Assembly: GCA_964276515.1 (NCBI GenBank)
Contig: OZ193909.1
Location: forward strand, 8,866,001-8,930,000
Length of the DNA: 64,000 bases
Direction of reading: 5' to 3'
Source: Gordius albopunctatus
Lineage: Eukaryota
In this document: one piece after another, positions 17,395-42,555 of the stretch
How the letters are laid out: each line of letters begins with the position of its first letter
Position numbering within the stretch: the stretch's first letter is position 1
Notes under the pieces: model-generated
The model's input: the letters and a program-made list of their open reading frames with translations, nothing else
The model's database searches: none
Told to the model about the DNA's origin: nothing
Translations under genes and position numbers: made by a program

Positions 17395-20130
17395 CTGGAT
17401 TCCTGCTGGGCTTCACCACTGCACATGGCGCCCAAAAAGAACAATGAGTGGAGATCATGCGGGGATTATCGAGCCCTAAATATAAAAACAATTCTCGATC
17501 GTTATCCTCTGCCCCACATACATGATTTTTCACTTTCCCTGAAAGGAAAAAATATATTCACCAAATTAGATTTAGCACGAACTTATCACCAAATTCCAAT
17601 GGCACCAGAAGACATAAAAAAAACCGCCATCACAACCCCATTCGGTTTATTTGAATTTGTACGCATACTTTTTGGTATCAGAAATGCAGCACAAACATTT
17701 CAAAAATTCATTGACAATGTTCTCAGAGAATTTGACTATACATTTACTTATTTGGATGACATATTAATTGCCAGTTCTTCTCTAGCAGAACACGAAATAC
17801 ACGTAGAACAGGTAATTCAACGACTATTCGATAATGGGATTAATGTAAATATGCAAAAATTTAAATAGGGTGTAAAGGAAATTGAGTTCTTAGGACACAT
17901 AGTGACGTCTTATGGGTTAAAACTTATACCCGATAAAATAGACGCCATTGACAAATTTCTAACCCCAACTTCAATGAGACAGTTGAGAAGATTTATCGGC
18001 ATAATAAATTTTTACCGAAGGTTTATCCCTAATTGTGCAGATCTCCTCAAACCATTAACCGATGAACTCGACGATACTAAAAGACCAATAGATAAAGAAG
18101 CATTTATTCAGGCAAAACAAGCCCTTAAACAAATAACTTGTCTATCTCATTTAGACGAAAAGAGGAAACTGTCACTCACTACTGATGCTTCCAATTTTGC
18201 AGTAGGAGGAGTTCTACAACAACAAACAGCAAACGGTGATATACTACCACTTGCCTTCTATTCAAAGAAACTTTTAGAAACTCAAACACGCTATAGCACA
18301 TTCAGGCGAGAACTACTGGCCATTTACCTTATGATAAAACATTATAGCCATGTTCTCGAAGGACGCAATTTCACCGTATACACCGACCACAAACCCTTAA
18401 CTTATGCACTTAAAGCCAAGTCGGACAAATATTGTTCTCGAGAAATTCGTCAGCTGGACTACATCTCTCAATTCACATCGGACATTTAATACATTCGAGG
18501 TATCACAAACATTGTGGCTGATACCCTGTCCCATACAGACATCGGCACAATCCAACTCCTTGCATCACAGTCATTGCTGGAACTCATAGCTACGAGACAG
18601 AAGGTTGAAAATTAAACAAATGATGAAACTAAATATTTAATATTGGAACAATTTCCAATACCTGATTCAAAACAAAATATCATTTGTGATGTTTCTATAA
18701 CAACACCTCGACCTCTGGTACCTTCTAACTTACAACAAACAGTTTTCAATCAATATCACGGATTATCACATTCTGGTATCCGTTCAAACCTGAAACTAAT
18801 TGCAAAACTTTTTGTCTGGTCTAAAATGAATCAAGATGTACGAAGATGGGCTCAACAATGTCATAATTGCCAGGTCAGCAAAATACATAAACATGTTAGA
18901 TGCTCGATTCAGCCATGTCCACCTAGACATCGTTGGTCCGTTACCACCATCCAATGGTTACAACTACATTTTTAAAGCCATAGATCGATACACCCGGTGG
19001 CCAATAGCAATCCCTATAAAAGATACTTCAGCCGAAACCGTGGCTAGTACCTCTTTAACACAATTATTTGGAATATAAATTTGATTATAATCAATACAAA
19101 AAAATCCATTTTTATTTGAATTCCTTTATTTTTCGGTGTTCTAAGCACAATAACAACTGACAGAGGATCGCAGTTTCGTTCAACGCTATTCCGGCAATTT
19201 TCCGAGCTTCTTGGTTATCATCACATAAACACAACGGCCTTTCCACCGTTAGCTAAAGAGTTCGATCATGGCAAAAAAACAACGCTAAAAAATGGTCCGA
19301 ATCACTTCCGTTGATACTACTAGGCATTAGAACGACAATCAAAGAAGATCTAACCTCTTCTAGTGCTGAACTAGTATATGGGACTACCTTACGTCTCCCG
19401 GGCGACTTCATACAATATTCGTCACTCGACACCAATGCTACTGAGTTTGTACAACGCCGTCGACACAACTTCGACAACGTACGTTTCTCACCATCACGTC
19501 CGTCAAACAACAAACAACATATCCCTACGGATTTGTTTTCTACACCTTACATTTTTATCAGGACTGATAAAGTTCGAAAAAGCTTATCCCCACCATACGA
19601 AGGCCCCTTCAAAGTTATTGACAGACAAACTAAATACTTTGTGGTAGACAGAAACGGTAAACAAGATAACATTTCTATCGATCGGTTAAAACCTGCATAT
19701 ACCGAATCAGTTAACCTTACAAAACCACTCATAAAAGGCCCGACCATTCAAACCCAACCTTCCACCTCTACATCCACAATAATCTCAACTAACACTACAA
19801 CAAACCCTACAACAACAAAATCAGGACGAAAAGTTCATTGGCCAGTTAAATTAGCCGAATACTTATATTTCTAGCACTCCTTGCAAACGGGAGGGGGAAT
19901 TATATGGTTACCTATTCATATAGCTTAACCTTTATTATTTGAATATATCAACTCTATCATTGGTTAACTATTCTAATACTTAACCTTTATTATTCAAGTA
20001 TTCACTCACCCTAATCATAAAAGTGAATACATTCAAGTATTTGAATATCTCGCAATTCACCGTTATTAAGATGTGTATATAAACACGATGTTTTAACTAA
20101 AATTTATTCATTCAATTCTTTCTATTATTT
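17395..20130 (+). mobile_element. 5'-truncated Ty3/gypsy pol (RT, RNase H, integrase) pseudogene with PPT and degraded 3' LTR
   Basis: YLDD, TDAS, DHKPL, HHCC, TTDRGSQF and PYEGPF motifs with stops and frameshifts; purine tract at about 19888-19899. Confidence 0.9.
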
Positions 20131-22379
20131 GGAAATAAAAATGTTATTTGCTCTCATTAAATCCCTTGTCTAATAAAATACTATATTTATTAATATTTAT
20201 AAGGACGACGGCAGTAACAGTATTTGTTTTTTTGGATTTTGACAAGCTTAATCTACATTTTTTATATTTAAGTGTATTAATCTTCTATCACTTAAAACAA
20301 AATTTAATTTGTAATGTAGTCAAAATCTGGCAAATTGATTTAATATCACTCACTTAAAGGCATGATGTAGGTGATTGTTAAAATTTACAATTATTCATCA
20401 ATAAAAAAGTATTTTCATTTTTATAATAAGACTAGCTGTGCCCGGCCAAGCTTTGCTTTGGCTCAGTCCTTAAGTGGTTAAATAAGTATAACCTATTAAT
20501 AAGACTTATCTAAAATGGGGTCATATATGAAATAATGTGAAAGGTCCGAATGCTAATGCAAATAAATATTCATAATATTTATTTAAGAGCGATATAAAAT
20601 ATTTATTAATAATTCATAAGAGTATATAAGCATTAAAATATAAAAAGCTTATAATAATGTATGGGTAATAAAGAGCTGTATGAAGATTTTGGCTGAAAGT
20701 ATAATGTAAAAAATCATGTAAATAGTAAAATAAAACCTGCAAGGGAAAGTTGATGGATAAAGGGTAAATCAAAGATAGGTCTGTCTTATGAAGAATAAGG
20801 TAATACGCGTACAGTATTATAGCTTCTTGTAAATGTCTCGGCAAATTTGGTTATAATACTCTGGCGTAATAAAAAGGGGAGAAATGCTAAAATAAATATA
20901 AAATTATAGAATTTAAAATGTGATTATACGCGAGTAAAATCAATGGGCTTTAATGGTAATTGCTAAAAGTTATGAGTGGATAAATAGAAATAATACTAAC
21001 TTTAATTATTCATGCAGATAAAGAGGGTTGTAGGTTCAGGTAAGAGATGCTTCACAGCTTAAATTCTTCCTTAGAAAGAAATAAATTGCTATAATGCTTG
21101 GAGATAGACAATATTTTTGACCATGTTATTATCTGTGTAGATATACAAATTTTGTGGATTGCCAACGCGCGAACATGCAACATATAATTGTCCATGTGAA
21201 AAACAATCTGTTTCTAAATCTATACCACAAATTTCTAGAGACTGGCCTTGAGCTTTGTTAATGGTAATAGCAAATGCGAGTTTAAAAGGAAATTGCAATC
21301 TTGTGAATTCAAAGGGTAAATCTGTTGGAATCAAAGGGATCCGTGGTATGAGGACATCTTCTCCAGTGAAAGGTCCAGTCAAAATCGTGGCCTCAACAAC
21401 GTTGCACATTAAGCGTTTAATAGCAAGACGTGTGCCGTTGCAAAGTTTTGGCTGATTAACATTGCGCAACATCATAATCGGCATACTAATTTTCAAATGC
21501 AAAACGTGTGGTGGTATGCCTGGGAGATCTAGCGAATTTAAAAATTCGAGCGGATAATTAACAGCGTCATCAGCAGTAACAACAGTATCAACCGATTTGT
21601 AGGTAACTGGAGTGCCTTCAATTGTAGACAGAATGAGATTGTTAAGTTCTTGGACGTCTTTATTCTTTGGGGCAAGAATAGCCCGTTAACGGAGCCATAT
21701 TCGATCTTGATAATGGGTGTTAATATTTGGAAAAACTTTTTCTACCAAAGCTGTTTTGGACGACACAAAATAGCAGAATTTGGTATGAAATGAAATCCGT
21801 CCTGAGTTTATATCGACGTGCACGGTTCCGTTTCCAATTTCTAGCAATTGATGGGAGAAGAACTCACATGCTTGATTTTGTAACATTACACGCATATTAG
21901 TAGTTAAATTTAAATGGAAGTAGGGAGCCGGCTTTATGATAAATTTGGCCCTTTACCTTGAATGTAGGCATGAATTGTGTGGTTACAACATCAGCGCCAA
22001 ACGACGTCATTTGGAAACAGGAGTTGTATTTCCTGATGTTAGATAGAAAATGTTTAGAACCAGTTGTATAACCAGCCAGCAATGTTTGTAATGGCTCAGG
22101 CGGTTCTGCAAGGTGAGGCAGTTTAACTTTTCCGGCTGCGCAACACATTCCAGTGGTTTCTCCAGCAAATTTCATAGACATAGTACCAATGAGAATATGG
22201 CGACGTAAACTTTCAATATTAGATGGGTAAGAAAATGCTAGGCGGTTGCCTGCGGGTAATGGCTGAGCACGTGAAGGTGGCTGAGGCAGAGTTGCAGAGT
22301 GTTATAGTTCATTTTTAAGCTCAAGAGTACGCAATCGGCGCAATCGATCCGCATTTCGTGTACTATGTTGCTGCTCACA

Positions 22380-22600
22380 AAAACAAATGAATAAATACTT
22401 TTCAAATATCGCGTTTATATACACTACTGGCGAGGTTATTTGTGTGAATAATAACGTTGAATTGTCAGACATTCAAATACTTGAATGTATTCACTTTTAT
22501 GATTAAGGTGTATGAATACTTGAATAATAAAGGTTAAGTTTTTTTCCTAGGTAACCGATGCGAGTTGCTTTATTCAAATTGCCTAGGTAACCATAACTAC
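22380..22600 (-). mobile_element. LTR-derived fragment inside the Helitron
   Basis: Reverse complement shares aatcataaaagtgaatacattcaagtatttgaat with the LTRs at 13853, 15136 and about 19900. Confidence 0.75.
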
Positions 22601-22753: not shown

Positions 22754-23520
22754 CATACACTTTAATAAAGTTTAAAGATAACAATTTAAAAGATATAAAC
22801 ATGAAATTAGCATTTAAGATAGCATTGCATTGCTATGAAAATTTAATTATATTAAATATATGGATTTTAAATATGATGAACTTTCCTAAAATTGTAATTA
22901 TTTATTGCTTGATTAAATTAATATTAAATTTATTGTTAAAAGACTCTAAATCTCTGAGGATATTACTTAACTAACATACACTTTAATAAAGTTTAAAGAT
23001 AACAATTTAAAAGATATAAACATGAAATTAGCATTTAAGATAGCATTGCATTGCTATGAAAATCAAATTATATTAAATATATGGATTTTGAATATGATGA
23101 ACTTTCCTAAAATTGTAATTATTTATTGCTTGATTAAATTAATATTAAATTTATTGTTAAAAGACTCTAAATCTCTGAGGATATTACTTAACTAACATAC
23201 ACTTTAATAAAGTTTAAAGATAACAATTTAAAAGATATAAACATGAAATTAGCATTTAAGATAGCATTGCATTGCTATGAAAATCAAATTATATTAAATA
23301 TATGGATTTTGAATATAATGAACTTTGCTAAAATTGTAATTATTTATTGCTTGATTAAATTAATATTAAATTTATTGTTAAAAGACTCTAAATCTCTGAG
23401 GAAACATACACTTTAATAAAGTTTAAAGATAACAATTTAAAAGATATAAACATGAAATTAGCATTTAAGATAGCAATGCATTGCTATGAAAATATGGATT
23501 TTAAATATGATGAACTTACC
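22754..23520. repeat. 221-bp tandem repeat, about 3.5 copies
   Basis: catacactttaataaagttt occurs at 22754, 22975, 23196 and 23405. Confidence 0.9.
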
Positions 23521-25059
23521 ATATCCTGTCACAGATCACAAACGTGGGAATGTACAAATATTACTTTAATTATATTAAATATATGGATCCCTGTCACAGA
23601 TCATAAACGTGGGAATGTGCAAATATTTCCGTAAAAATGGAAAAAAATCACGAAACTTGTGAATGTTTCTAAAAGCGCGCGTTATATTTATTTAAGTATA
23701 TGGTGATGTATTACGGTATCTAGAATATTTATTTGAAAAATTTATATATTGTAAAAAAACCGGGCGTAGTTTGGTAAAAAATTGAGACAAATAAGATAAA
23801 GCAATAGTGGAAAAAAGTTTAAGGTAATTGGTAGCACCATAACGATAAATAAGTACAAAAAACGTAGTATGAGCAATCCGCTAGATGGCGGTATAGACTA
23901 CCAAAAAACATGGTTCCCACTGTCGCAGGTTGATAAAAAGTATCTATAAACCTTCTACAATCCTAAGGAAATTATCTGGCCAAATTTGGTGGCAATCGGT
24001 TGAGAACTCTAAAAGTTATTAGCGTTCAAAAAAAGGGACTTAGATATATATATAGATTGCTGTGTGATCATTGTTTAAATTTAGAACATAATTATTATGT
24101 AAAATCAGAGTGTTGATTCTTTTCTCATAGCAATTTAATGTATATCTTTATTTGTGATTTGCTGTTTATATTTTTGAATGCATCTGTGACGGGATAATTG
24201 TACAAATAAATGAAGAGTTATAAGGCCTAAGTCAATTTAATACCAATGCATTTTTTAATAATAGTATAAGGAAAACAACAACCTATATGTTTTGTTTTCT
24301 TGTATTTATTTTATTGTTAGCACTTTTAATGATTATTCAAAATCTAATTTAAAATATCATTATTTAAGTCTATGTTGTTTAAATATTATCCTCAGAGATT
24401 TAGAGATAACATTAGTAAATATAATACTAATTAACGTGTCAACATCAAACAATAAATATTCATAATTATGAAAGTTTATCATATTTTAAATTCCATATAT
24501 TCAATATATAAATTTTCATAGTAATGTAATGTATATCCCAATTTTTTATTTCATGTTTATATTTTTTAAATGTTAATTGAATACCAATTTATTTATCAAT
24601 ATTAGATACTTATATTTTTTGTTTATGCTTATTATATGTTTATTTAATAGCATTATGCAAATGATTATGTATTCACTAATTTAAAATATCCTTCATAAAG
24701 TCTATATTCTATCAATATTATCCTCAGAGATGAAAAGTTCCTATAACTCAAGAAAATTTATATATTAATTCATTTGTCACCAAAAAATATATAATTAATA
24801 ATTATAAGAAAGTTTACCATATTTTATATATTTCATCCAAATTTTAGACAATATCAATAGATTCAAGAATGTGCACTAGTAAGATGGCAAACTTTCAAAT
24901 TATAATTAATTTGCTAATATCTAACTATATATAAGTATAATTAACTTATGAATTTTGTTATAAAGTGAATATATTTTAGCAGGGTTTCTTTCAAAAAAAA
25001 TGCTCCGGGTGGGGGGGGGGGGGGTATTTTCAACTTTCGGGGGGGGGGGTTAAATTTTT

Positions 25060-25322
25060 TTAATTGCTAAACCATTTTGTATAATATTTACTGATTTTTA
25101 TTAGTGATATAAGTGTTTTTTGTTGAATAAATAAATCGTTTTTGTTGTAAAGAGAACAGACAGAGCATAAAGCCTCACCTAAGGCTTTATCAAAAATTAG
25201 CCATTTGTATTTAGATGTCCATGAAATCATAAATTTATATGATGGTTTAAGTTTTAAATTTTGCCCATGTTTTTCACTTTCAAAGACTGAACAATTAGTA
25301 GAGCTGCCAATGCACTCATCTT
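25060..25322 (-). pseudogene. TTF-type zinc-finger fragment (hAT transposase N-terminus-like)
   Basis: FMISWTSKYKWLIFDKALGEALCSVC matches an F..W...Y.WL......CxxC pattern. Confidence 0.5.
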
Positions 25323-28300
25323 TATAAATATATATTAATAAAATAAAAACAAGTTGCATAATTTTAATTACCATCATTTTTATCATAGGAAAAAGAAGAG
25401 ACAGTTTTCCCCACTCAAGCAGAATTACAATTTTCATCTTGACCTAAAAAATAAAAATATATATAATACTTCTATATTAAACCAAAATCTTTCTTGCCTC
25501 TTTGAGAGTTCATGTGAATTTCACTGCTGGAAGCAGAATAATATCTGCTTTTAACTTATATATACTTAAAATATCTAATGCTTAAAAATAATTACCATAA
25601 TTTCCCATAGTAAGGGATAAAACAAGAGTTTTTTTTAATTGAGTCCCATCTTTACCTATTACAAACAAACATATTCATGCCTTATTTTATATAAACACAA
25701 ATACCCATAGTATTCCCGACACATCTCTTCTCGCCTTTTTCTAATTCAAAATCAAATAGATAAAAAAGATATTTTATCTATATCAGAACTTAAATGCATG
25801 ACAGATAATTATCATTAGTTATAAACATTATTTTGTGTATATAAATGTAAATACCATCGTTTTTATTTTAACAATCTATGGAATAAACCAGTTTCTTCGC
25901 AGAATTATCCTCGCCCTTTCGTAATATATAATTGATTAGACAAAAAAAGATCTTTTTTATATGCTTGCAAGCGAATTATCATTAGTTAATATACATTTAA
26001 AATGACCAATATTTTGTTAGTAATATAAATACCATCCTTTTCATTATAAAATTGGATGGAACAAACCAGAGTTTTTTCTACAGAGCAATTATTCACATCT
26101 TCACCTGTTGCATAATTAAAATTATTTAGGCTTTTCCTTTTTACTAAATTAGTGTAAAAGAGTACTTTTATATTTACCAGGCATCTGCAATTCAAAATAA
26201 GGATATTATATCAATAAAAAACAAACAATAGAATCTATTATTAATAATAATTCTTTTTAAGTTTATAAGTAAGATAGTCATTAATAATTCTAAAAGCATT
26301 TATTTATGTTTATTTACCTATTGATATTTTTTAATTAAAGATAATTAGTAACTTTCAAGATTGTAAAAAATGCCTATTAAAAACTCGTTTAAATTAGGGT
26401 TCACAGAGAATCATGCACAACATCGTGAAATTTTAACATCGAGACTAGGTTGACAAATTAGACAATATATCTGAAGCATCAAATTAATATTAAAAAATAT
26501 ATGTATTTTGTACAAATTTCAATTAATAATAAAATATTAGATACTATTGTATAATCAATATATATTAATTAACTATATAGTAAAGGTTTTATAATAACAT
26601 TGTATTGATATTAAATAGTTGCCTGTGAAGACTATAGATATGAGCAGTGTATCATAAATAAATGGAAAGATATTAGTTTGTTATATAATAATGTATGATT
26701 TCCTTTTTTATAATATAGGATCATGTATAATGTTTTATATCAAATGAACTTATATTTATGTGATTGCTAATATATGAAGAGTCATTATAAATTTAATTGT
26801 ACTTAAATTTTATAAATAATTATGTAGTAGTTTTATTAAGGATAAAATATTGTAAATTAAATAATATATAGTTTTATATCAACAAATCAAAATTATCATT
26901 TCAAATAATGTAATTTTAACTTTAACATGTGAACAAAATGCTTAATATCGTGGATAACCTTATATTGTTTATATAAGTATAGCAATGGCTTATCTAAATT
27001 CGCAGAAACCTATTACTATCCTAATCTTATATATTTTTGTAATTATATCTGTAGTTTTTTATATAATATTTTATAATTTTATAATGTTCTATATTAGCAC
27101 AAGATCTGGAGAAGGAAAAAATGGCAGTTTGATAATAATATAATCTTTATGAAAAGGGTTTGTAAGGAAACACCCACAATAAGACATTAGATAATTCATA
27201 GATTTTTAGAAATGTGAGTGCTTAAACGAGGAGGAACGTGACATATTGTCTTTGAAAACTCTTTTGTCAGATACCAAATCCTTTTAAATAATGGAAGGGC
27301 ACTAATTTAAAGAGTACATGATCAAAAATTGTTGTTTGTTAAAAAATAATGTTACTTTAACATTGTAAATAAACTATTTGTTTACATTCTATTTGTATAT
27401 AGCATACATTGATATTGTTCTCAAAGTTTTTAGCATTTACAACTTTTTGACTCTTATATTTATATATTACATGATATTTGAAATACATGATATCCAAAAC
27501 GTAAATGTTTATTCTTCTCATATATAATACCCAAAAATTATCATAAGTTATGGTATAAAATAAAATTATCATATACTTTAAATTAATGAAGAGTTAAATA
27601 ATAATTATAAATCAACTCAATTTAACCTTGCAGGTAACACTTCTAGTTCGGCCGAACCAATTTCTATAAAATATTTTTTGAGGCATCTCAATATGCTCTA
27701 GATAAATAATTCAAAAATTCTGAAAAAATTACTTAGTTCCGGAAATAAAGGGGTGCCACCTAAAGGTTACACTAGGAGGCATAAAAATAAGCTCATTTTA
27801 AAATTTTATTAAATGACTAAGATAAGTGAAAAAAAGTTAATTATATTAAAACGATGATCAACAATAAATGTGAGGTCTGATATTGCAGTATGGGCATAAA
27901 ATTATTGTTGCTTAGTTGCATACAGAGCAGCGTCGTTGAGTTCACTTTTTTGAAGGGCGGATGCGTCCTGACGATTCGTCACTTGTCCCATGAGATAAAG
28001 GCCTTTTTCTAGAAAATGACTACTCCTGTATTGACCTGTTTGCACCCTTCAGCGATACTCCCGACCCCCTAGGATCATCAGAGCATCGTAAATCCGTAAA
28101 ATATTCAGATTTATTAGAAACCTCCATTTTTAATCCTATCGTCTCGCCGTGCTCATAGATGTTAGGGAAAAGCGCTTTATTTTTTTAAAGTACTTAATAC
28201 ATAAAGAAGACGAAGAAACGGATAATGTCTTTCAATCATTTTTTATAAATATTTTCGTTCTTGTATTTTTTTTAAATTACACTATATATTTTTTACTTTT

Positions 28301-28403
28301 CTATAATAAAGCATGTCAGTTGACCCTAAAATTTGTTTAACCCCTTTAGCAATTATTTACACCACGTGTGATTACTATAGCATGTTACTTTACAACAAAG
28401 ATT

Positions 28404-31230
28404 TTATTCGGAGTCACTAGTATAATCACTAGTGTCTCTTTCACGCGAAATAGTATTAACATCAAGTGAATTATTATCAAAATGCGAGTTCGAAGAAAAA
28501 TTAACAAGATTATAAACGCGCGAAGTACCACTATATGATATATATTTAGCTATATTGTCTACATAGTTTAAAATATTGTAATTACGCGATGTATCCATGT
28601 ATAAATCGCGTAAAATATTAATAGGCGTATTTTTATAGCGTACATGTTTTTTTATAGAAAATAATACTTGACCTTGATCAATTTGAAAAATATTAATCTC
28701 AGCCTTGGTGTTAATTTGAATTAAAAATGAAACGCAAGTGTAAATGTCGGGATGGGATACTCCAATAAGAGATTTGAGGGAATTGTGATAACCCTCGAGG
28801 TGATTGTTGGTCCTAGGACCAACAGCCTCGTATCTCTGCCACATTTCATAGGAAAATGTGACTGAGTGGCTCACCCAAGTGTTAAATACATACGAAAAAA
28901 AGAACGTAATTTTGCATGCTGGGAGACAATAGGGTCATCCCAGCAGGCTCGAAAAACGGTTAAAACGTCCTCATATCGTAAGAAAGAGAAAGCGGACACC
29001 CTTCGGACCATTTTTCGAATGTTCTGATCACTTAGGTATTGTTTTTTGAATTCCAACTTTTCTACTCGCCTCACCAAGGCTTTCGAAAAATGAAATAAAC
29101 AACCTTAAATAAAAAATTAGTACGACAGATAAATTATTACCTTTGATCACACCATTCGGAAAACACCTTTGAAGAGCGCTCTTCGCAGAGCGCTCAAAGT
29201 CTATTTGTATATAGGTCGGGTTTAATTCCAAATTAAACTCTAGGCAAAGCTCTTTCAACTTATCAAATATAGCACAATACGTTAATCGCTTCCTGTCGGG
29301 CATGAAGGCATAAACTATTGGGATCATATGATCCTTATAGTACCCGTGTATGGTGTAAAGCTAAAATCTCAAATCTATTAACGCATAAAATTAATTACTT
29401 GGTAGAATAAAGTAGGGCATACTTTAAAGGTACCATCCATGTAGATTGAGGTTACCTCACACAAGATTCTCAACATAGAAGGGGTCCCGAAAATTAACAA
29501 GTTGTTATTTTCGTTCCATAAAAGGAACCGCTCATTCCTCGGAGTTAGTGTTTGGGCTTCAGTCAAAATAATTTGACTTCTGTTGGCAGGTATAGGAAGC
29601 CTATTAATAACGCCTCTTTTCATCGTCGACCTTACGGCTTTAAAAGATGGCATAGCCATAGGAAATTCCGTAAGGTCAGGCACCTCAAGCATTCGGGCGC
29701 TTATGGTTTGATGATAAATTTTGCTAATTTTGACACCGGGATTAGACGCAACAGCGTTTTTCAACTCCCTCTTCGTCACCAAAGCCTCGTATTCTTCCCT
29801 TGGAGGTTCATGGTTATGGTGACGATTGATAAGAATTCTACCATCAACCTCCAAGGCTGTTGCGGGGCAAGAGAAGTCGCGGCATTTGTAGTAGGTTTTC
29901 TCTGAGGCCTTCCTGCTTTTAGCATAGAGATAAGAGGAGTAATATAGTATTACTCCTCCATTTGATCTGATATACTCTGGAGATGATGCTAAAATAATAT
30001 AAAAAGCTTAAATAAAATATACATACCTTCGCTTGATTCCATCTGATTTGTAACATCCATGAGAAGCATAGCATCTTGAAGTGATTGTGGACCTAAAAAG
30101 TACAAAAAATCCTAGGGTAATATACTTGGAGAGGCAAATAATTGTGCTTGAATTGGAAAATTAGGTGGACGAGGAGCTATTGCACTTATTCTTCCAGCTT
30201 GTGGATCTAAAAAGTACAAAAAATCCAAGGGTAATATACTTGGAGAGGCAAATAATTGTGCTTGAATTGGAAAATTAGGTGGACGAGGAGCTATTGCACT
30301 TATTCTTCCAGCTTGTGGACCTAAAAAGTACAAAAAATTCTAGGGTAATATACTTGGAGAGGCAAATAATTGTGCTTGAATTGGAAAATTAGGTGGACGA
30401 GGAGCTATTGCACTTATTCTTCCAGCTTGTGGATCTAAAAAGTACAAAAAATCCAAGGGTAATATACTTGGAGAGGCAAATAATTGTGCTTGAATTGGAA
30501 AATTAGGTGGACGAGGAGCTATTGCACTTATTCTTCCAGCTTGTGGACCTAAAAAGTACAAAAAATCCTAGGGTAATATACTTGGAGAGGCAAATAATTG
30601 TGCTTGAATTGGAAAATTAGGTGGACGAGGAGCTATTGCACTTATTCTTCCAGCTTGTGGACCTAAAAAGTACAAAAAATCCAAGGGTAATATACTTGGA
30701 GAGGCAAATAATTGTGCTTGAATGAAAATTAGGTGGACGAGGAGCTATTGCACTTATTCTTCCAGCTTGTGGATCTAAAAAGTACAAAAAATCCAAGGGT
30801 AATATACTTGGAGAGGCAAATAATTGTGCTTGAATTGGAAAATTAGGTGGACGAGGAGCTATTGCACTTATTCTTCCAGCTTGTGGACCTAAAAAGTACA
30901 AAAAATCCAAGGGTAATATACTTGGAGAGGCAAATAATTGTGCTTGAATTGGAAAATTAGGTGGACGAGGAGCTATTGCACTTATTCTTCCAGCTTGTGG
31001 ATCTAAAAAGTACAAAAAATCCAAGGGTAATATACTTGGAGAGGCAAATAATTGTGCTTGAATTGGAAAATTAGGTGGACGAGGAGCGATTGCACTTATT
31101 CTTCCAGCTTGTGGACCTAAAAAGTACAAAAAATTCTAGGGTAATATACTTGGAGAGGCAGTTCCAGGCAAAGTTATCCTAGGAGCAGTTGTAATGAGAC
31201 ACATTCTCACAAAATTTAGAGGTTGACCTA
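28404..31230 (-). CDS. FLYWCH zinc finger + MULE transposase-like gene A (spliced, apparent frameshifts)
   Basis: YYKCRDFSCPA..HHNH, MDGTF, IDFE, CLFHF and RTNNHLEGYH across small introns; frame break near 28880; 5' end uncertain. Confidence 0.8.
30089..31160 (-). repeat. 114-bp tandem array: 33-nt intron + 81-nt exon
   Basis: Ten gtatattacc...tttttag intron-like segments separate nine near-identical exon-like segments encoding PQAGRISAIAPRPPNFPIQAQLFASP. Confidence 0.9.
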
Positions 31231-31658
31231 AAGTTTTATATTTTAAAAATTCATACACAATGTATTACTACAAATACTCTCAGGTTTTGATGTTTCGGTA
31301 ATTGCAGAAATGTGGCTCATGTTGCTAAAATAATATAAATTTAAGATTGGAACTATTTTGCGATAATCTGATTAGTTGTTTAAATTTTATCTTATGACAC
31401 ACGCTCTTAGTGTTATGGCACACGCTGTTAGTGTTGTGACCCATGTCGTTAGTGTTATGACATGTATTTTGCAAAAATTTGGGCATATATGATTGGCCGT
31501 CGTGACGATGGAAAATCTGAAGGCTGTGCAGGAGCGTTCACAGATGTTAAAAAATGGATTTGGGTGGTATCTTTTCAATTGACAAAAGTTCATTTGTAAA
31601 AATCTCTAAATCTCTAAATATCTAAACTCCCGCGAATTTTAAATTTTTCAAGTGTATA

Positions 31659-32320
31659 ATGTCAAAAGTTACATATGTTTTATTCCAAAAAAAACAAACG
31701 AATTTTAGTGTATGAAAAATATGAATACACTAGAGTGAATGGTAGCAAGGATCACAGGGAGTACTATAAATGTAGAGCTAGCCATTGTGTAGGTCGTGGT
31801 GTTTTATATAATGCAAATTTTATAATACCCGCACAATGAGATCCCACACAAAGGTAACATTTATAATTGTTACCACTTATATATGATATAACTTATAAAA
31901 ATCATGGGTGCATTGCTGATCCTCTGCACCAATTCACCACCTCCATATATCATAGTTGTAAGTCTATTTATGAACATTATATCATTTATCTAGATTGTTT
32001 ATCAATTCCAGCTATGATTCCCAACCCTGTACAAGCACAAGCCTCATCCTTCACCACCTCCAGATGTCATAGTTGTAAGTCTATTTATGAACATTATATC
32101 ATTTATCTAGATTGTTTATCAATTCCAGCTATGATTCCCAACCCTGTACAAGCACAAGCCTCATCCTTCACCACCTCCAGATTTCATAGTTGTAAGCCTA
32201 TTTATGAACATTATATCATTTATCTAGATTGTTTGTCAATTCCAGCTATGATTCCTAACCCTGTACAAGCACAAGCCTCATCCTTCACCATCTCCACATC
32301 TCGTAATTGTAAGATAATTT
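31659..32320 (+). pseudogene. FLYWCH-like gene fragment D with a 117-bp exon-intron array
   Basis: EYYKCRASHCVGRG fragment; gtaag donors at 31958, 32075, 32192 and 32309; 36-nt introns and 81-nt exons. Confidence 0.65.
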
Positions 32321-33291
32321 GTTAAAATATCTGCTTTTAATACTTTGTAACAAAATTACCTTAAAATATCTTGTCTAAAATACCTATTGCAGATGAAATA
32401 GCTAAGAGTATAGAGAAATTTAAACAGTATCAGTTAAGACCAATATTAAATTTTTTTGCCTTAAAAAATAAAAGGCCCAAAATTGCATAAGTTTGAACAT
32501 TTCTATTTTCTTTGTATTTATATTTAGTTTAAACTTTCTTTTATATAATCCTATTGATTAAACCCTAAAATCAAATATATTTTTTGGGTATGAGCTAAAA
32601 TATTCAAGAAAAAATTTTGGGGGTTGCTCTAATTATAGTTTTAAAATTTAAACCACTTGATCAATTAGCCAAATTAATATATTAATGAACTTATAAGAGT
32701 GTAAATATTATTCTTGTAATTTTTGACAAGTTCATATAGAAAAACATGTTTAGGGTAATTATGACCTCAAATACCATCAGTGTTAGCATTTTTGACCCAA
32801 CCTACGAAGGGTTAAGTGTTAATTAAAATTACAAATGATAAATAACAATATATTAAAACCTTCAAATAAACTTATTACTGTAGCTCACCTTTTCCCACAC
32901 TCGCTATCTCCGTGATTTTCCCACACTCTCAACCATTAATTATCTCATTAGTTAATTCCCTCTTAGTTTTTAGATGTTAGGAATACATCATCGATCATTT
33001 TAGTTTTGTATTTTTAAACAAGTTGACCTTCGTATATTTTAACAAATCCACTTATTATTCCCACGCTATTCCCTATATATTGACAATTTATTGCATATAT
33101 CGGGTTCTTGCTTTTTTCGCATATAATTCTTCTTGCTATTTTCCGTTCTTGTAATCGAAGCTATAAAACTTATCATTTAATAAAGGCTCCATCGTTGATG
33201 CAGAAAACATGATTGATGAAGTGCAACGAGTACAAAGCCTTCAGCAAAGTAATTATACTTTCAATATTAAATAATATTCCCTTTTTTAGAT

Positions 33292-34404
33292 ATGCGATTT
33301 GTACCCTCCCGCAAAGGTACCCTTCTGTATTTCAGGGATTATCTTTATTGTAAAACAACTAGAACCTCGTCTGCTACATACTATCGATGTAGGACTCGAA
33401 CTTGCCCTGGTAGGGCTAGAATTACAACCTCCCCAGAAGTTATACATGGTCATAATCATGAGCAAGCGAGGGAGGACTATGAATTTTTAATTACAGTGAG
33501 GGATTTAAAGGATGCGGTGCTGGCAGAGCCACGGGAGAAGCTGAGGAAAATTTATCATAGAATTATTAACTTTTAATTTATAGGCCTACACAATCCACAC
33601 ATATTACCGGGGTCGCATGATTCCCGTCGTGTATGCCCTCTTACCTGACAAAAGCTTCGAAACCTATAAAAGGGTTTTCAACAAATTGAAGGAGTTGAGC
33701 CTTGAGCATAATTTTGTGTCACAACCTAATTATGTTCAGGTAGACTTTGAAATGGCTAGTATACAGGCCCTTCGAGAATGCTTTCCAGGTGTTTCTGTAA
33801 AAGGTTTTTAATTTATTAAATAACATATATTTAATTTAGGATGTTTATTCCATTTTGCTCAAGCTATTTTTCGAAGACTTGGGCATGATGGAATACGCGC
33901 CGATTACGATGATAACCAACATTTCAAGAAATTGGTAAGGCGCGCATTAGCCCTTCCATTTTTGAAAGAACACGATGTGCTAGCTGTGTTTGGATTATGT
34001 GCTTCTGACCCTCTGGTTCGCTCTAACCCGAAAATGCAAGACTTTTTCCATTATATACACAGAACCTGGGTCTGGTCAACCGCCACTTTTCCCTATGAAA
34101 TTTGGCAAAGGTTTAATGCTGTGGGGCCCCGTACAAACAATCATTTGGAGGGCTTCCATAACAGCATTAAATGCCTTGTTGGCCAGGCCCACCCCGTTAT
34201 TTATAATTTTATTGAATTCTTACGGAAGCAACAGGCTATGACGGAAATTAATATATTGCATATTTCTCAAGGTAAGCAGGTGTTACCAATATAAATCGAT
34301 TGATAAATCAATATAGATTTAACGAAATTGATGTATATGAATTTATTGACAATATTTCTGTATATATGTATTTACAATCGCATGAATTAATTGTTGACAT
34401 ATAA
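33292..34404 (+). pseudogene. FLYWCH + MULE transposase-like gene B, internally deleted
   Basis: YYRCRTRTCPG..HGHNH, VDFE, GCLFHF and RTNNHLEGFH are present; the DGTF segment is absent. Confidence 0.8.
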
Positions 34405-34617
34405 ATAAAATATATTTCTAATTATATATATATATTGTTAGAAATCTTAAGTTATAAGTAGATCTTTTAAGTAACAAGTTCCCTCTTGACATATACCCTA
34501 CAATAAATCAAAGTAAACGTTATTTTTTATTAAAAGAATATTCAAAATGTATTAAAAACACAAATTGTAAAAGATATCATCATATAAAAAAAATACATGT
34601 TTTTTTTCATATAAAAA

Positions 34618-34847
34618 ACTTACGTAAGAGCATTCTTGGGGTAAAACAGAACCCCACGAGCCAAAAAAGCTTCTATATTTTAAAAAGTATTAAGCCAAAA
34701 CTTATGAAATTTTCGCCTAACCTAGTTCTTGGTAAAATTTTAAGTTACTGAAAAGACCTAATTTATTAGACTTAAATTGCGTTCAATATTTTAATTCATA
34801 ATTTGCGTGGGGTTTCGAAATACCCCACGAATACTCTCGCGGGTTAG
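34618..34847. mobile_element. Degenerate MITE
   Basis: gagcattcttggggtaaaacagaacccca and tggggtttcgaaataccccacgaatactc form imperfect inverted repeats. Confidence 0.45.
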
Positions 34848-35529
34848 ATAAAAAGACATCATAGAAGGGTATATTCAAGGATATAAAAGATCTTCATGTA
34901 ATATATATAGATATTATATAGAACTATAAAAATAGGAAAGATTAAGAAGAAAATTATAATTAAGTTACTTAATAAACATAGTATAATAAATTCATTATTT
35001 ACTATAAAATATAAACTCTTAAAACTACAAAAGTAGATTATAAAACAAAGCTAAAATATTGTTATTTGCTAATTGTAAGAGCTCAATTTTATCAAATAAA
35101 AGCCTATGCTAGATATATATAGATTAAATGAATGAAAGTATAACCAATCTTTTACTCGTTGATAGATTACTCATTATTTACACTTTTTAAACCATAAATT
35201 CAATAAATTCCATAAAATGTTATCAGAAATATACATGTAATATTTTCCAAAACAAAATTTTTATAATGTGGGTCTAACTTAAATTTCTATATGATAATAA
35301 GTATAAGCACTTTTTGTTAAGTTAAATATCTCTTGCAAATTATTAAAAATGATTGTTATATTACCATTATATAATATTTTTATATTTACAATATATATCT
35401 AATGCGATTTTATTTATATTTTAAATATGTATCCAAATGCGGTTTATTTTACATATGCCCTTTTGTCAATTGAACCAGATTCATAAACATATGGATATTA
35501 TAATATATTTTAATTTTATAGTATCAAAT

Positions 35530-35960
35530 ATAAATTAGATTTAGTTGTTAATAATGGTAATAGTTAATAATTAATGAACATGTATTATTAAATTGGTTTA
35601 ATGTTTATATATAGCATAATTATAGTTAGAGTAAGGCTAAAAACGTTTATAATTATATTTAATGTTATATAAAACATTTCAATTACATTTTAACAAATAA
35701 ATTAGATGTAACTGTTAATAATCAAAATAGTTAATAATTAATGAACATGTATTATTATCAATTAGTTCAATGTGTATATATAGCATAATTAAAGTTAGAG
35801 TAATGCTATAAAACGTTTATTATTATATTTAATGTTATATAAAACATTTCAATTACATTTTAACAAATAAATTAGATGTAACTGTTAATAATAAAAATAG
35901 TTAATAATTATTGAACATGATTTACTATCAATTGGTTCAATTTGCATCTATAGCATATGT
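35530..35960. repeat. About 170-bp AT-rich tandem repeat
   Basis: aattagat..a..tgttaataat recurs at about 35533, 35700 and 35870. Confidence 0.75.
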
Positions 35961-37660
35961 AAAGCTAAACGTTATGCATTTTATATCTGTTGTACTATGT
36001 ATCTTATATAAATAAAATAAAGCAATAGTTAATGATATATATAAAATGAATAGATATTATCACTACTGTGTTTAATGTACAATATTGTATAAATAAAATA
36101 AGCTTAATACAATAAAACATACTATTGTTACATTTAAAAATAAATAGTGTGTAAAATAATGTATGAAAGTAGTTAAAAGAATCACTCAGGAATATTAGCC
36201 ATAATTATAAAAAATTCTATGTTATAAATATATATGCAGCAGCTAAATAACAAGTATAAGCATAGGTTTGTTATAAAGGCGAGCTCATAACAAAGAGGGG
36301 GGGTATTGGTTGAGAACCATTTTAAAGAAATTCGACCAAAAAGTTAGGATAAATTTTATCGTTCTTGTTAGGTTATGTTTGAATTAGCAAGAATCAATTT
36401 AGACAATTTATTTTTATAAAGTTAGCTGATATAGGATTTATTTATTGATAATAACATAATTATGTCCTAGTCAACTTTAATAACGTCTATTGCCATATTT
36501 AGTGATGAAGATTTGCTCCAATGAGTATTGCTCACTGTGAGCTCTGCCCCCTTACACGCATTGCGTATCCTACTCTACTCATGAGGCTGTTGATGTACTA
36601 GATGACAATGCTCGAGAGGCGAAAGGGTAGTAGCGAAAAGTAACTCATGTATAGAGCTGTGTGCCTGAGCAGCATTATAAGTTGACTAACCGATTTCATA
36701 TGAGCAAATGCTATGAGCAAGCAGTTTATCTAAACTGCTCATAACATAATGTTCTAATTAAAGCGTCCTTAGTTTTAACACAGTACATTCTGTTCAACAA
36801 TTATTGTAGCTATTTGAATAGGCGTAAGTCGGATTTCCTAAAGGGGTGGGGGGGGGGGTAAAAAAATTTTAAGATCACATTTTTTTGCTAATGATCTTAT
36901 AATTTATTTTTTATACATGCCAAAAATTTAAAAAAATTTATTTAATTATAAATTTTTAAGTTTTCTGTCTCACCCAGGCGGTAATAATCTGTTTGACAAT
37001 TTTAATATGGTTTAACTTTATATTTTATCGTTTTTAAGAATAGGTGTCGATGTTAAAATTTTATTAAAGGTACTAACTAATATTTTTTTCGAATATCATT
37101 ATATAAATCTAAAATGATTTAAAAAAATTTATTTTTTATAAATGGCGAAATTATATTTTAGTGTATAAATATTTTTTGACATTCTTAATATGACTTAATG
37201 TTTCTAAATTTATATTTAATAATATTTTTAGTCCAGGTCACAATGCAAAGTTTTATAAAAAGTGGGAAATTTTGTTTTATAGAATATTATTTATATATGG
37301 CTAAAATATGCTTAATGATATTAAAATTTATTTTTTATACACGAAAATTTTAAAGGTGTGAATTTATTTTTTTGGCAAAAGATTTTGAAATTTATTGTTT
37401 AAAACATGTCAAAAATATTTTTATTTTATTTACATATATTTGATTTAGATGTCTTATATCTGTTTCTAGTTCAAATTAAAGTATTGACACCAAATCAGCA
37501 TTATTATTTTATTAAATTTCGAGATGATATAATTTTCCCAAAATGTACAATTAAATCTAATAATATAAGATGGTCTATGAGTAAATATAAAACACATGCA
37601 GCGCGAATTAATAACATAACTTCAAGCTTGTATTTAAAAATTAAAACAAATTTATATTTA

Positions 37661-39223
37661 TTATTGTAAATCAATTTCATCAAATAACGGGGCATCGTGA
37701 CCTTGTAAGTGCATATAATTAGAGATGGCATCAACATATGAAAAAAGGGGCATAGGGTTAGATACATTTGTATATTGAGCTATAAGACGATTTATATTAT
37801 AATTAATAGAAGCGTATTTTTTATTTGTTTCATACACTCTTTTTCCCTGAGAGATGTGTAGCAAATCAACATTAGTTTTTTCTTGTAGGTCTAGCAGGAA
37901 ATCAACAAACACATATATAGTAGGGTGGGTTTGTGTGAGCCCACTTTTAAGAGCATTATGAAAAACTTCGAAGTGGTTTTTGGTTCGGGGCCCCTCTGCA
38001 TCAAGCCGTTGCCACATATCATAGGGGAACAAGGGGTCCCTCTCAAGCCCAACCCAGGTATTGTGGACGTACAAAAAAAAATTCTCAATTTCTCTATCGC
38101 CGCGCACATTGGGCTGGGCCATGCAAAGGATCATGACATCGCGGATGTGCCCTCTCTTTACAAATGGTAATGCTAAAAGACGACGAACGCTGCGCTTGAA
38201 ATCAGCATTTGATGAATAAAGATTCTTCATTTTGCCAGACCCAGCGTGTCGATAGATCGCCTGGCCAAAATGAAACAAGCAACCTAAAAATTATATAAAC
38301 AAAACATTAAATTTTACCCTTTATAATAATATTAGGGAAACAGGCTTCCAAGGCCCCGATGCTTGCCCGTTCGAAATCAACCTGTGCATAAGTTGGGGCG
38401 AAAACTAGCTGCAAGGTAGCACAAATCTGAATAAGTGCCCTGAACACTTTCTTATAAGTATATTCTGTTTTATCAGGCAGAAGGGTATATACTACTGGAA
38501 TCATATGCTCCCGGTAATAGGTATGAATTTTATAAATCTAAAAACATTCACAATATATTTTAATACTCGAGATTGAGATCATAGGCAAGTTTTGGGCAAT
38601 AGTATTGATTGTCACAGAGGCTGGTCCTAAAAAAATATATAATTCACAATATATTTAAATACTTGAGATTGAGATCATAGTCAAGTTTTGGGCAATAGTA
38701 CTGTTTGTCACAGAGGCTGGTCCTAAAAAAATATATAATTCACAATATATTTTAATACTCGAGATTGAGATCATAGGCAAGTTTTGCGCAATAGTATTGC
38801 TTGTCACAGAGGCTGGTCCTAAAAAAATATATAATTCACAATATATTTAAATACTTGAGATTGAGATCATAGGCAAGTTTTGGGCAATAGTACTGCTTGT
38901 CACAGAGGCTGGTCCTAAAAAATATATAATTCACAATATATTTAAATACTTGAGATTGAGATCATAGGCAAGTTTTGGGAAATAGTACTGCTTGTCACAG
39001 AGACTGGTCCTTTAGATGGGGGTGTTGATGCTGATAAGGAGCATTTACTTGATGTATGTAGTTTTGCAAGGGAAAAGGAATGGGACATGGTTCCTTTTCC
39101 CTTACAAGTGTAGTTTCTACACTTGTAATATATCTTATGCTCAGTCTCATTAACCTTAACATAAGATATATTATTATGAATTAAAATTCTTTTTTTCTGT
39201 CTGCTGAGTGTCCAGGAGATCAT
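37661..39223 (-). pseudogene. FLYWCH + MULE transposase-like gene C with a 96-bp exon-intron array
   Basis: IYYKCRNYTCKG, VDFE, CLFHF and RTKNHFEVFH; repeat at about 38540-39010 is a 36-nt intron plus 60-nt exon; the DGTF segment is absent. Confidence 0.8.
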
Positions 39224-39933
39224 TACTTTATTATAAATCCTATGTATATGAATAGGAAATGTGTGATTGGCAGCGATTCGAGTTATAAATTAACAATGAA
39301 AAATCATGCATATTAAAATCTTTATGAAGGATTAAAATCTTAATAAAGGTTTCTTTTTTTAATCCAATATTCGTTAATACTAATAATCTATATTATTATA
39401 AGGCGTTAATTTGATATACAAACCAAAATAAAGTGTTAATAAATTGTCATAATTCTATTTTTAAAATAAAATCCGAGTTTTTATGTCTTGTTTGTAAGCA
39501 ATCAAGTTGGCAATCAAGTTTGGCAATCAAAGTTTTGAATGGAAGGGCATTTTAACGGTTGACCCAAAACAAAAAAATGATGTCTATGAATGATTTCCAC
39601 CTTATTTGTAAAAAAATTTAATCTCGCAAATTTTATATTTTTCTTATTGACAAATTAAAATATTTTATTGAATTTAAATTTTAGCCTATTAATATAATTT
39701 ATGACTTCATGATGGAACTTGAGTTCATGCTTCAATCAAAACTCTCCGGGGGGAAGGTATTTGAAATTTTTGAAGGGGGGGAGGGGTTCCCCCCGGGCTC
39801 CCCCCTGAAAGAAACCCTGTATTTTAGTCTATAACAAGCCAAAATTGTAATGCAAATGTAATTGTATGTATATAAAAAATGCAAAATTAATTTAAAACAT
39901 AATCCTTATTCTACTGTTATTAAATAATATTAT

Positions 39934-42442
39934 TGTTGCGATCGTTTGATTTAACTTTATTCTAACTCCATACACTTTACAACATAAACGAGACGAGACG
40001 CGATACAACTAAAATATATGCGATAAAACTACAGTATGCTAAAAATATTACAATCCCCAATAGGGAAAACGCATAACACGTGTTCTATATATTTTACTCC
40101 ACCAGTATAATAGAACTTAAGCGTAAGTTACACTTCGTCAATTATCCTCTACACTTCCCCCTTTTCACAAAGATAATGCCTTAGGTAGCTTGGGGCCTGT
40201 CGTACCCGGCGTGGGTATCTAACATCAGGCGGGGCGTTGTTAAGCTCCGGAGCCATGGGAGCGACACTGTGTTCCCCCGCTCTTGTAGCGGCACTATCAT
40301 TCGGAACCGTTGGCAAGGGACCCTGACTGGACGCCGTTGGTAAGGGCTCGCATCACTTGACTCGTTCGCGAGTGTATCCCGGTGCGGCCAACCATTTTCG
40401 TGTCCAACCATTCTCCAGTACAGTATTTTCCTTCGTCTCACTTGATCTAAATGTCGATGGTGGCTTCTCCCTAGGGCCTTAACGTCGAACGAGTGCGCCC
40501 CGCGCTTGGAAATAATGGTGCCCTCCACCCATTTATCGGGCCCCAGGTACATACGCACCCACACTGGGTCTCCGACGTCGAACACTTGCGCCTTTCCTGC
40601 ATCTCTCCACTGGGGTGAGATAGGTTCTCTTAATACTTCCCTTGACTCGTGCAGCTTAGGTAGGTACTTTTTGTAGCGTAGCCTTGGACCGACAACTACT
40701 GTTGTACCGCGCGTACCCCTAATCCACTCTTTGCGCTGCCGTAAAGTCCCATCGCTGGCGGTGTACTGTCGTATAACGTCCAGTGCGATGGACGCGTTCG
40801 CGATATCCTCTAGTACATCTTCGGTAACTTGGAACGAATGCTTGCTTGGTCGTCTCGACACAACAATGAATGCGTTATCCTTACCCTTGATGGCAGCCAT
40901 GGCTCGACCTTGATCTTGGTCCGGTGTCGCGTTCCTAGAGAGAGGCTTATTGGGGTTGGGTGGAATTACAGATTGTTGCTGAGACGAGGAGCCAGGATCC
41001 CTAGAAACCGCTTGCGGCGGTGCTACGCTGCTTTGTTGTTGTGGTAACTGACCAATCAAACCGGGTTGCTGTTGGTCGGGGAAGAAAACTGGGCCCGGCA
41101 TTAAGACGGGTGGAAAAATCCAGCTACCGGGTGGCCTACACATTGGGCCCGCACCCAAGGGAGGCATTTGACTATATTGCATTCCGATACTCACGGGATC
41201 GCTAGGTCTCGGCTCTTTCGTGACCTTCTCCTCGACAAAATTAACAACGTATTGCTCCATGACGGCTCGCGAACTCTATCGGGTTAGTTCCCATACGTCC
41301 TTTCCTAACTCTTTTATCCAGTTTGTCCCGAGTAACGGCGGTACCTTCACATCCACCACCAGCATCGAAAGGCGCTTTCGGTTGGGACCTAGCCGGACCT
41401 CGGCTGTTATGTCCCCGATAATCTTTATCTCCTTGCCGCCAAACGCATACACGGCAGGTCTCGAGTTTGCTTGCACGGGTAAGCGTTCCTTCCACAAGTT
41501 GGCCGGTACGATTGTAACGGTGGATCCCGTGTCCATAAGAAAAGTTATTAATGTTTTATTAACAAATACATCAATAGTCATAATATCTAACGCATGGCCG
41601 AACCTGGTCATACTCGGGCCCGTCCTCGTCGCGTCGACCGCAAATGCCTCGTCAACTGGCTGATGCATTGTCCTCAGACCCTCGCCGATTGCCTTCCGAC
41701 CTAGGGCAATCTCCACGGCCTTGTCCCATTTCAGATCCCTCTCGGCCATCAATGCAGCCTGCACCGTTGGATCGTGGAGTCCTAGAATCAGCTGATCGAG
41801 CATCCTGGCCGATAATTCTCCAGGCTGGAACCCGCATTCCTTTGATGCCTCTTTTAGCCTTCGAATATACCGCATGAGCTCCTCCCGGGCATCTGACGAA
41901 TATTTCCAAATCTGAATCTCTGTGGAAGCGGGCAGGTTTTCCCTTTAAATACTTTCCTTGCCCTCTTGGTCGCTTCCTCGAAAGTCCATTCGGTAGGGTT
42001 ATCCGGGTACGCGTCGCCCGCGATAACCTTAAACGCCTCCGCCGATAACGAACTTAGGAATATGCACGTTTTCTGGGTATCCGATAACGTCCCTGACTGT
42101 GCCTTGAAGTTGGCCTCGAATTTAATTAGGAATGTTTCGATCGCATTGGACAACTGGAATAAATTCATAATGTAAATCCAGAATAATATCCTCAGACTAA
42201 TTTCCCGGTAGGTTCTCGCAGCGCCAATGTTGCGATCGTTTGATTTAACTTTATTCTAACTCCACACTTTACAACACACACGAGACGAGACACGATACAA
42301 CTAAAATATATGCGATAAAACTACAATATGCAAATTATTACAATCCCCAATAGGGAAAACGCATAACACGTGTTCTATATCTTTTACTCCACCAGTTAAT
42401 AGAACTTAAGCGTAAGTTACACTTCGTCAATTATCCTCTACA
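39934..42442 (-). mobile_element. Non-autonomous Ty3/gypsy (Mag-like) LTR element
   Basis: LTRs 39934-40153 and 42228-42442; TSD attat; PBS tggcgctgcgag; PPT aaaagggggaag; gag, DTGS protease and integrase C-terminus present; no RT. Confidence 0.92.
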
Positions 42443-42555
42443 ATTATAAGAACACATAGATATAAGATAATCATTATAATAAAATTAACTGTATAAAGAG
42501 CTATTAATTAAAAATAATAACATATGGCTAGCTAGTCTCTATAAGTATTCATTAA

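Follow-up and report, generated by a model that had tools for sequence, protein, structure and literature searches.

Predicted exon-intron arrays in the linker of nematomorph FLYWCH-MULE transposase genes: a recurrent and probably mostly mechanical pattern

A stretch of 64,000 nucleotides (nt) of the Gordius albopunctatus genome (contig OZ193909.1, positions 8,866,001 to 8,930,000; hereafter the window, whose own numbering is used throughout) contains three predicted genes for FLYWCH-MULE transposases, G1, G2 and G3. Each of them carries an array of very short exons and introns, repeated in tandem, in the linker that precedes the transposase-proximal finger. The explanation that we consider probable is a passive one, in which duplications of the linker happened to catch an intron, survived when the exon part was a multiple of three (3n) and were then amplified. 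The case deserves attention because new exons and introns would have arisen repeatedly at a single position, within a transposase family that looks active and belongs to a little-studied phylum with tiny introns. The young, near-identical arrays, with their readable breakpoints, provide a natural test of intron addition by exon duplication and of filtering by tolerance of intron retention. The arrays and the genes that contain them are the following.

28404..31320, minus strand: G1, a gene predicted to encode a FLYWCH-MULE transposase, with array A at the N-terminal end.
29810..29968, minus strand: FLYWCH finger of G1, of the transposase-proximal type (PF04500, E=1.7e-07).
30093..31149, minus strand: array A, ten GT-AG introns and nine phase-1 exons (predicted), at the N-terminus of G1.
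31659..34294, plus strand: G2, composed of a FLYWCH finger, array D, a phase-1 exon, a second FLYWCH finger and the C-terminal half of MULE.
31684..31794, plus strand: first FLYWCH finger of G2, lying upstream of array D (PF04500, E=3.6e-04, under the curated cut-off).
31958..32308, plus strand: array D, with 36-nt introns and 81-nt phase-1 exons (predicted), three of each, in G2.
33186-33248, plus strand: short phase-1 exon between array D and the second finger of G2.
33307..33459, plus strand: second FLYWCH finger of G2 (PF04500, E=5.6e-06).
37661..39223, minus strand: G3, in which the C-terminal half of MULE follows a FLYWCH finger and array C in an out-of-frame fusion.
38538..39009, minus strand: array C, 60-nt phase-1 exons and short introns (predicted), in G3.
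39083..39205, minus strand: FLYWCH finger of G3 (PF04500, E=5.7e-04, under the curated cut-off).

Tandem Repeats Finder located the repeats at 30085-31160 (A; period 114, 9.5 copies), 31933-32313 (D; period 117, 3.3 copies) and 38546-39011 (C; period 96, 4.9 copies). These values and the reading of the genes agree with the sizes given in the initial annotation (introns and exons of 33 and 81 nt in A, 36 and 81 nt in D, 36 and 60 nt in C), apart from one 79-nt exon and introns of 35 and 29 nt. All ten predicted introns of A are 33 nt long and eight of its nine internal exons measure 81 nt; the remaining one, at 30696-30774, has 79 nt and disrupts the reading frame as assembled. The 60-nt exons of array C are separated by introns of 35, 36, 36 and 36 nt, followed by a 29-nt hybrid. 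Both the 79-nt exon of A and the 35-nt intron of C may be assembly errors. Every intron of A, D and C lies in phase 1 in the frame that runs to the FLYWCH/MULE sequence, so the phase-1 symmetry first described for these exons stands, as does the low complexity of the encoded peptides, with P, S, A, T and Q making up 58-62% of each unit. The array introns have a GC content of 11-27% vs 41-45% in the array exons. As predicted from the sequence, the unit of each array is one exon plus one GT-AG intron and preserves the frame.

The introns are predicted to be spliced, and in the case of A and C the reading frame depends on it. Stops in frame occur in 4/10 introns of A and in 3/4 introns of C, so that these two arrays are open only if spliced and their unspliced translation is ruled out, whereas the frame of D is open both spliced and unspliced. 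When 4,897 GT..AG stretches of 30-45 nt were taken as background, the splice-site scores of A, D and C fell in the 96.5th, 94.3rd and 99.9th percentiles, respectively. No intron-skipping joints across G1 were found in the contigs of four public runs, which behave as DNA.

How much of the shared pattern calls for a special explanation was judged against ordinary introns of the window, seven of which belong to a ribosomal protein gene.

10241-11752, minus strand: RPL3 gene, with introns of 41, 33, 87, 35, 36, 37 and 38 nt.

The longest RPL3 exon is 93% identical to a Gordionus protein, and the four other matches above threshold reach 63-64%, which points to a likely nematomorph host other than G. 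montsenyensis. Twelve of the 15 non-array introns of the window measure 33-41 nt, and the arrays thus have introns of host size. The four ordinary introns of the linker are all in phase 1, vs phase 0 in five of the seven RPL3 introns. Since the linker was already in phase 1, the phase of the arrays is inherited from it. The symmetry of the exons is forced, because a duplication that spans one intron puts copies of that intron on both sides of the new exon; in simulated duplications across one intron, phase was symmetric in 100% of the frame-keeping cases. A length of 3n is found in 5/15 non-array introns (3/13 among the short ones), and the 3n lengths of the array introns are probably due to chance. 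They are also not kept across copies and paralogues: besides the 35-nt intron of array C, a paralogous A unit in public run X2 (a loose end at 30109, in 2 contigs) combines a recognisable exon with a 35-nt intron, and loose ends in runs X1 and X4 imply A introns of 34 and 35 nt, the sequence stopping before the end of the intron. The evidence does not support a new system with phase-1 symmetry and 3n-length introns as its rules; these features are mostly not independent and, as matters stand, the pattern is mostly mechanical.

The edges of the arrays preserve a trace of duplication, because their units match the ends of flanking exons. The C unit reproduces the 60 nt at the end of the upstream FLYWCH exon (58/60 identical). 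The D unit has 23 of its last 25 nt in common with the upstream exon, and the A unit matches its upstream neighbour over 11 nt and the downstream exon over 8 nt. A passive origin would probably account for this as follows. The starting linker would have been intron-dense, in phase 1 and loosely constrained, so that a short duplication there would often include an intron. The birth of each array would be the duplication of a stretch of ~100 bp spanning one tiny predicted intron, and copies would persist only when the exon part was a multiple of three, which would render them symmetric and skippable. Later amplification would have proceeded by slippage or unequal crossing-over, and splicing would yield transposases with low-complexity linkers of variable length and unaltered fingers. 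Recurrence would then follow from a mutational hotspot and weak constraint, with no dedicated diversifying machinery. Also in favour of this reading, the three changes listed for the A exon all alter amino acids, vs 19 synonymous and 15 non-synonymous ones listed for the rest of G1; both counts are partial, being drawn from the listed changes only. Both the tendency of this intron-dense phase-1 linker to undergo intron-catching duplication and the survival filter on 3n exons are parts of the scheme that we infer.

The units of A, D and C appear to be unrelated, or nearly so. The P(I/V)QAQ motif previously attributed to A and D is present, as PIQAQ and PVQAQ, and the similarity of the two units is borderline by shuffling (p=0.068 for protein, p=0.050 for DNA). 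Of 36 pairs compared, two gave p<0.05, one of them setting a unit against the exon that flanks it. This agrees with the idea of repeated and largely independent cassette amplification, to which Gordionus adds up to four units in the same linker: one of 33 amino acids (aa; three loci), one of 27 aa, one of 21/22 aa, the core motif of which occurs in 10 copies in CAK9299757.1, and a degenerate one of ~46 aa. A relationship between the 33-aa and 27-aa units is possible (p=0.011 among the 36 pairs). The RefSeq isoforms X1-X4 of LOC135931423 measure 607, 576, 575 and 574 aa, and the differences of 31, 32 and 33 aa correspond to one unit each. This fits exon-coded units and transcription in Gordionus, where an exon-per-unit structure and its phase are suggested by the isoform differences; to judge from the isoform junctions, a single unit possibly extends over two or more small exons. 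Because the homologues in Gordionus montsenyensis bring up to four further units and isoforms that differ by whole units, the growth of exon arrays in this linker looks recurrent and lineage-wide, like a hotspot.

A word-index search with the G1 exon returned none of 477 candidates as a relative, and the relatives came from a later HMMER search. Linker repeats were present in 3 of 150 relatives found in this way, all from Gordionus, and most animal relatives begin at the finger. In an enlarged set, repeats were seen in 14/183 proteins, 13 of them from Gordionus; this set is weighted towards Gordionus, each isoform is counted on its own, and many other matches begin at the finger.

The three genes are deep paralogues of a FLYWCH-MULE (Phantom-like) transposase. 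Their cores are 39-51% identical and form a single clade (100/99) in a tree of 48 rows, made up of the three window genes and the best 45 among 63 proteins retained by a coverage filter. This clade groups with eight Gordionus proteins and one other protein at 94/89, under the starred level, and a ninth Gordionus protein falls outside the group. Two Gordionus proteins, P0010 and P0022, are long, contain several FLYWCH-like repeats and end in the N-terminal helices of the transposase, apparently without a catalytic core; they were possibly domesticated from this MULE family.

The full DDE core is kept in G1 only (D184-D250-E372 with CxxH; PF10551, E=4.7e-07), with the catalytic motifs YMDGTF, QIDFE, CLFH and TNNHLE. 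G1 has a frameshift at 28894, where all the contig depth of public runs X1, X2 and X4 shows an extra base. The frameshift is likely an assembly error, and its absence from public contigs indicates that the assembly has homopolymer errors. Contigs identical to G1 reach a depth of 640-700 in X2 vs 126-190 for diverged paralogues, and of ~1,030-1,230 vs 65-88 in X4 (organism B), which suggests recent near-identical copies of G1, ~5 in X2 and ~14 in X4, depth not being a copy count. In G2, the last D exon is joined in frame to the exon at 33186 over a predicted intron of 877 nt, and two frameshifts near the start both lie within homopolymer runs. As assembled, neither G2 nor G3 contains the stretch that bears the first catalytic Asp, and G3 also lacks the second finger. 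Without the first Asp, G2 and G3 are defective members of the MULE family. Their deletion breaks (33560-33587 and 38538-38566) end in the same intron, before the exon with the MULE match; the shared position may reflect a deletion hotspot or intron-intron recombination. G1 and G2 are arranged head to head, with ~340 bp between their starts (31320-31659) and a 21-bp repeat at 31392-31462 in between, and they possibly share a promoter.

A FLYWCH finger had been reported beside each array, and PF04500 matches are indeed present, although the fingers next to D and C fall under the Pfam cut-off, which is exceeded only in G1 and by the second finger of G2. The arrays alter the length of the linker and not the DNA-binding zinc fingers. 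As regards the suggestion that they serve to diversify DNA-binding proteins, the fingers are untouched, and the genes are transposase genes, two of the three internally deleted in this assembly.

Several observations weigh against a passive origin. The splice scores of A (2.4) and D (0.9) lie under those of all 15 reference introns (3.5-10.1), on which the score was itself trained, and the introns are open in frame in D (3/3) and in most of A (6/10). The three founding introns are all 3n, an outcome with a chance of 0.037 under a uniform expectation or 0.012 with the 3/13 base, both calculated post hoc. Neither flanking exon contains a match to the central 62 nt of the A unit, and A is therefore not fully explained by one simple duplication. 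The substitution counts given above are partial. Finally, recurrence in two genomes could reflect selection instead of tolerance.

Selection is the core of the alternative that survives best, which we nevertheless regard as unlikely. According to it, the copy number or skipping of the cassettes tunes finger spacing or motif dose, and with them end binding, activity or escape from the host. The same linker is affected in three window genes and in at least six Gordionus gene models or loci, several unrelated units have a like composition, RefSeq isoforms differ by whole units, and G1, which looks recently amplified to judge from depth, has retained its array. Yet no motif is conserved across the units of different genes, repeats are confined to the few Gordionus proteins among the 150 relatives, most of the animal ones beginning at the finger, and G2 and G3 are broken in the window. 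Skip calls within identical repeats can be mapping artefacts, and the skip isoforms are possibly of this kind. As a speculation that deserves slightly more credit, and still little, the nematomorph Mutator linker may be a selected, splice-tunable cassette array, invented anew with as many as seven different units, that sets finger spacing or activity, a transposon-borne counterpart of the mucin-type exon arrays of parasites. If linker length were functional, it would represent an undescribed means by which a DNA transposon varies the transposase that it encodes.

Another possibility, which we rate lower, is that the new introns were poorly spliced, so that arrays of 3n, stop-free introns survived retention and the 3n lengths result from a passive filter. 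This would account for the 3n founding introns, the open frames in D and much of A, the weak splice scores of both arrays and the fact that D, when unspliced, is one 152-aa open reading frame (ORF). Against it stand the stops in most C introns and in four A introns, and the 35-nt introns in array C and in the paralogous A unit. That the arrays are minisatellites expanded in dead or untranscribed transposon DNA, their exon-intron look merely inherited, is the least probable: the loss of the first catalytic Asp from G2 and G3, the frame break of G3 past array C and the 79-nt A exon point that way, against exon units that are 3n in all three arrays, a G1 with a full DDE and CxxH core whose single core frameshift does not appear in public contigs, changes in G1 that are enriched for synonymous ones among those listed, and Gordionus homologues annotated with several isoforms. 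The passive origin from intron-catching duplications is thus the reading retained here.

The three arrays and all MULE genes are enclosed in a larger unit.

24980..39819, no strand assigned: hAT-like element of 14,840 bp, with perfect 14-bp terminal inverted repeats (TIRs) and an 8-bp target-site duplication (TSD).
25063..25443, minus strand: remnant ORF that probably represents the N-terminal zinc-finger region of a decayed hAT transposase.

The outer 14.8-kb unit combines the short TIRs and the 8-bp TSD of hAT elements, and in 10 local shuffles a 14/14 TIR accompanied by a TSD of at least 8 bp never arose. According to the available part of PMC5499845, a TSD of 8 bp is compatible with hAT or MULE. 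A search for TIR/TSD pairs at gene level, or for MULE-type TIRs around single genes, yielded none, the outer 14-bp TIR being the only strong pair. The remnant ORF has no Pfam match. Its ESM Atlas feature scores are 0.97 and 0.96 to clusters with zf-C17orf113 (11% of members) and DUF4371 (16%), families that we take to be linked to hAT. The outer TIRs and TSD, together with the resemblance of this ORF to hAT-linked zinc-finger clusters, indicate that a decayed hAT element most likely harbours the MULE genes, either as nested insertions or as cargo.

Other repeats accompany this element. Within it, the minus strand at 27880-28340 has a degenerate Cys-rich reading, presumably reminiscent of a piggyBac C-terminus, with a TTAA-CCC end-like motif at 28337 and one X4 contig diverging nearby; no partner matching this piggyBac-like end was found. 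An LTR (long terminal repeat) retrotransposon lies at 39934-42445, ~115 bp to the right of the hAT-like element, with 223-bp LTRs that are 94.6% identical and an aspartyl protease match. Fragments of a Pif1 helicase (PF21530) at 21089-22301, flanked by an inverted repeat (20000-20068 / 22449-22517), are probably a Helitron remnant. Tandem repeats at 22754-23493 (221-bp units, with inverted relatives at 24360-24829) and 35530-35964 (170-bp units) showed no link to a gene. A 366-aa ORF at 57553-58653 has a reverse-transcriptase match (PF00078) and overlaps another ORF, a layout that we assume to be reminiscent of a DIRS-like element.

On sequence grounds the window proteins are Phantom-type MULE transposases. 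Like Muta1 of Aedes and Tm1 of Meloidogyne, as far as the available parts of their descriptions go (PMC5225508, PMC5499845, PMC3169594), they combine FLYWCH and a MULE domain in intron-containing genes. The spacing of the DDE residues is alike in G1 (184/250/372) and Muta1 (214/283/419), and the CxxH located 21 residues past the second Asp is common to G1 and Phantom-type transposases (PMC5225508, PMC5499845, same parts). Unlike Muta1 and Tm1 as described there, the window genes have an additional N-terminal part that holds a second finger as well as an exon-intron array, and long MULE-type TIRs around them were not found. The tandem repeats of Muta1 and Tm1 sit in the TIRs, whereas those of the window are in coding exons (PMC5225508, PMC5499845, PMC3169594).

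The Gordionus sp. m RMFG-2023 models LOC135931423, LOC135926362, LOC135931596, LOC135925642, CAK9299757.1 and CAK9291164.1, all uncharacterised, have the same layout as the window genes, with an optional first finger, the repeats, a short spacer, FLYWCH and MULE. Their cores are ~35% identical to those of the window and their unit sequences are unrelated to A, C and D. A search of the open-access literature, with subscription papers outside it, yielded no account of arrays of this type, either for transposases or for nematomorphs, and the portions of the main texts of nematomorph genome preprints that were available do not mention 'intron', 'MULE' or 'FLYWCH'.

The process itself has precedents. 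The gain of introns through tandem duplication, as outlined in the accessible part of PMC2891723, likewise creates new exon-intron structure through a short intragenic duplication; there, one coding copy turns into an intron, whereas in the window an AT-rich intron of existing type would be copied together with exon sequence. In SmPoMuc of Schistosoma mansoni (PMC2576457, partial text), as in the window, an exon and its flanking intron are repeated in tandem, the copies are homogenised and variable in number, and paralogues have different units. The SmPoMuc units measure ~1 kb, include a 27-bp exon and belong to a polymorphic mucin family, vs units of 96-117 bp with introns of 33-36 nt in a transposase linker. 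In conclusion, the arrays are apparently undescribed in this setting and constitute no new system, being largely explained by known mechanics of the SmPoMuc kind.

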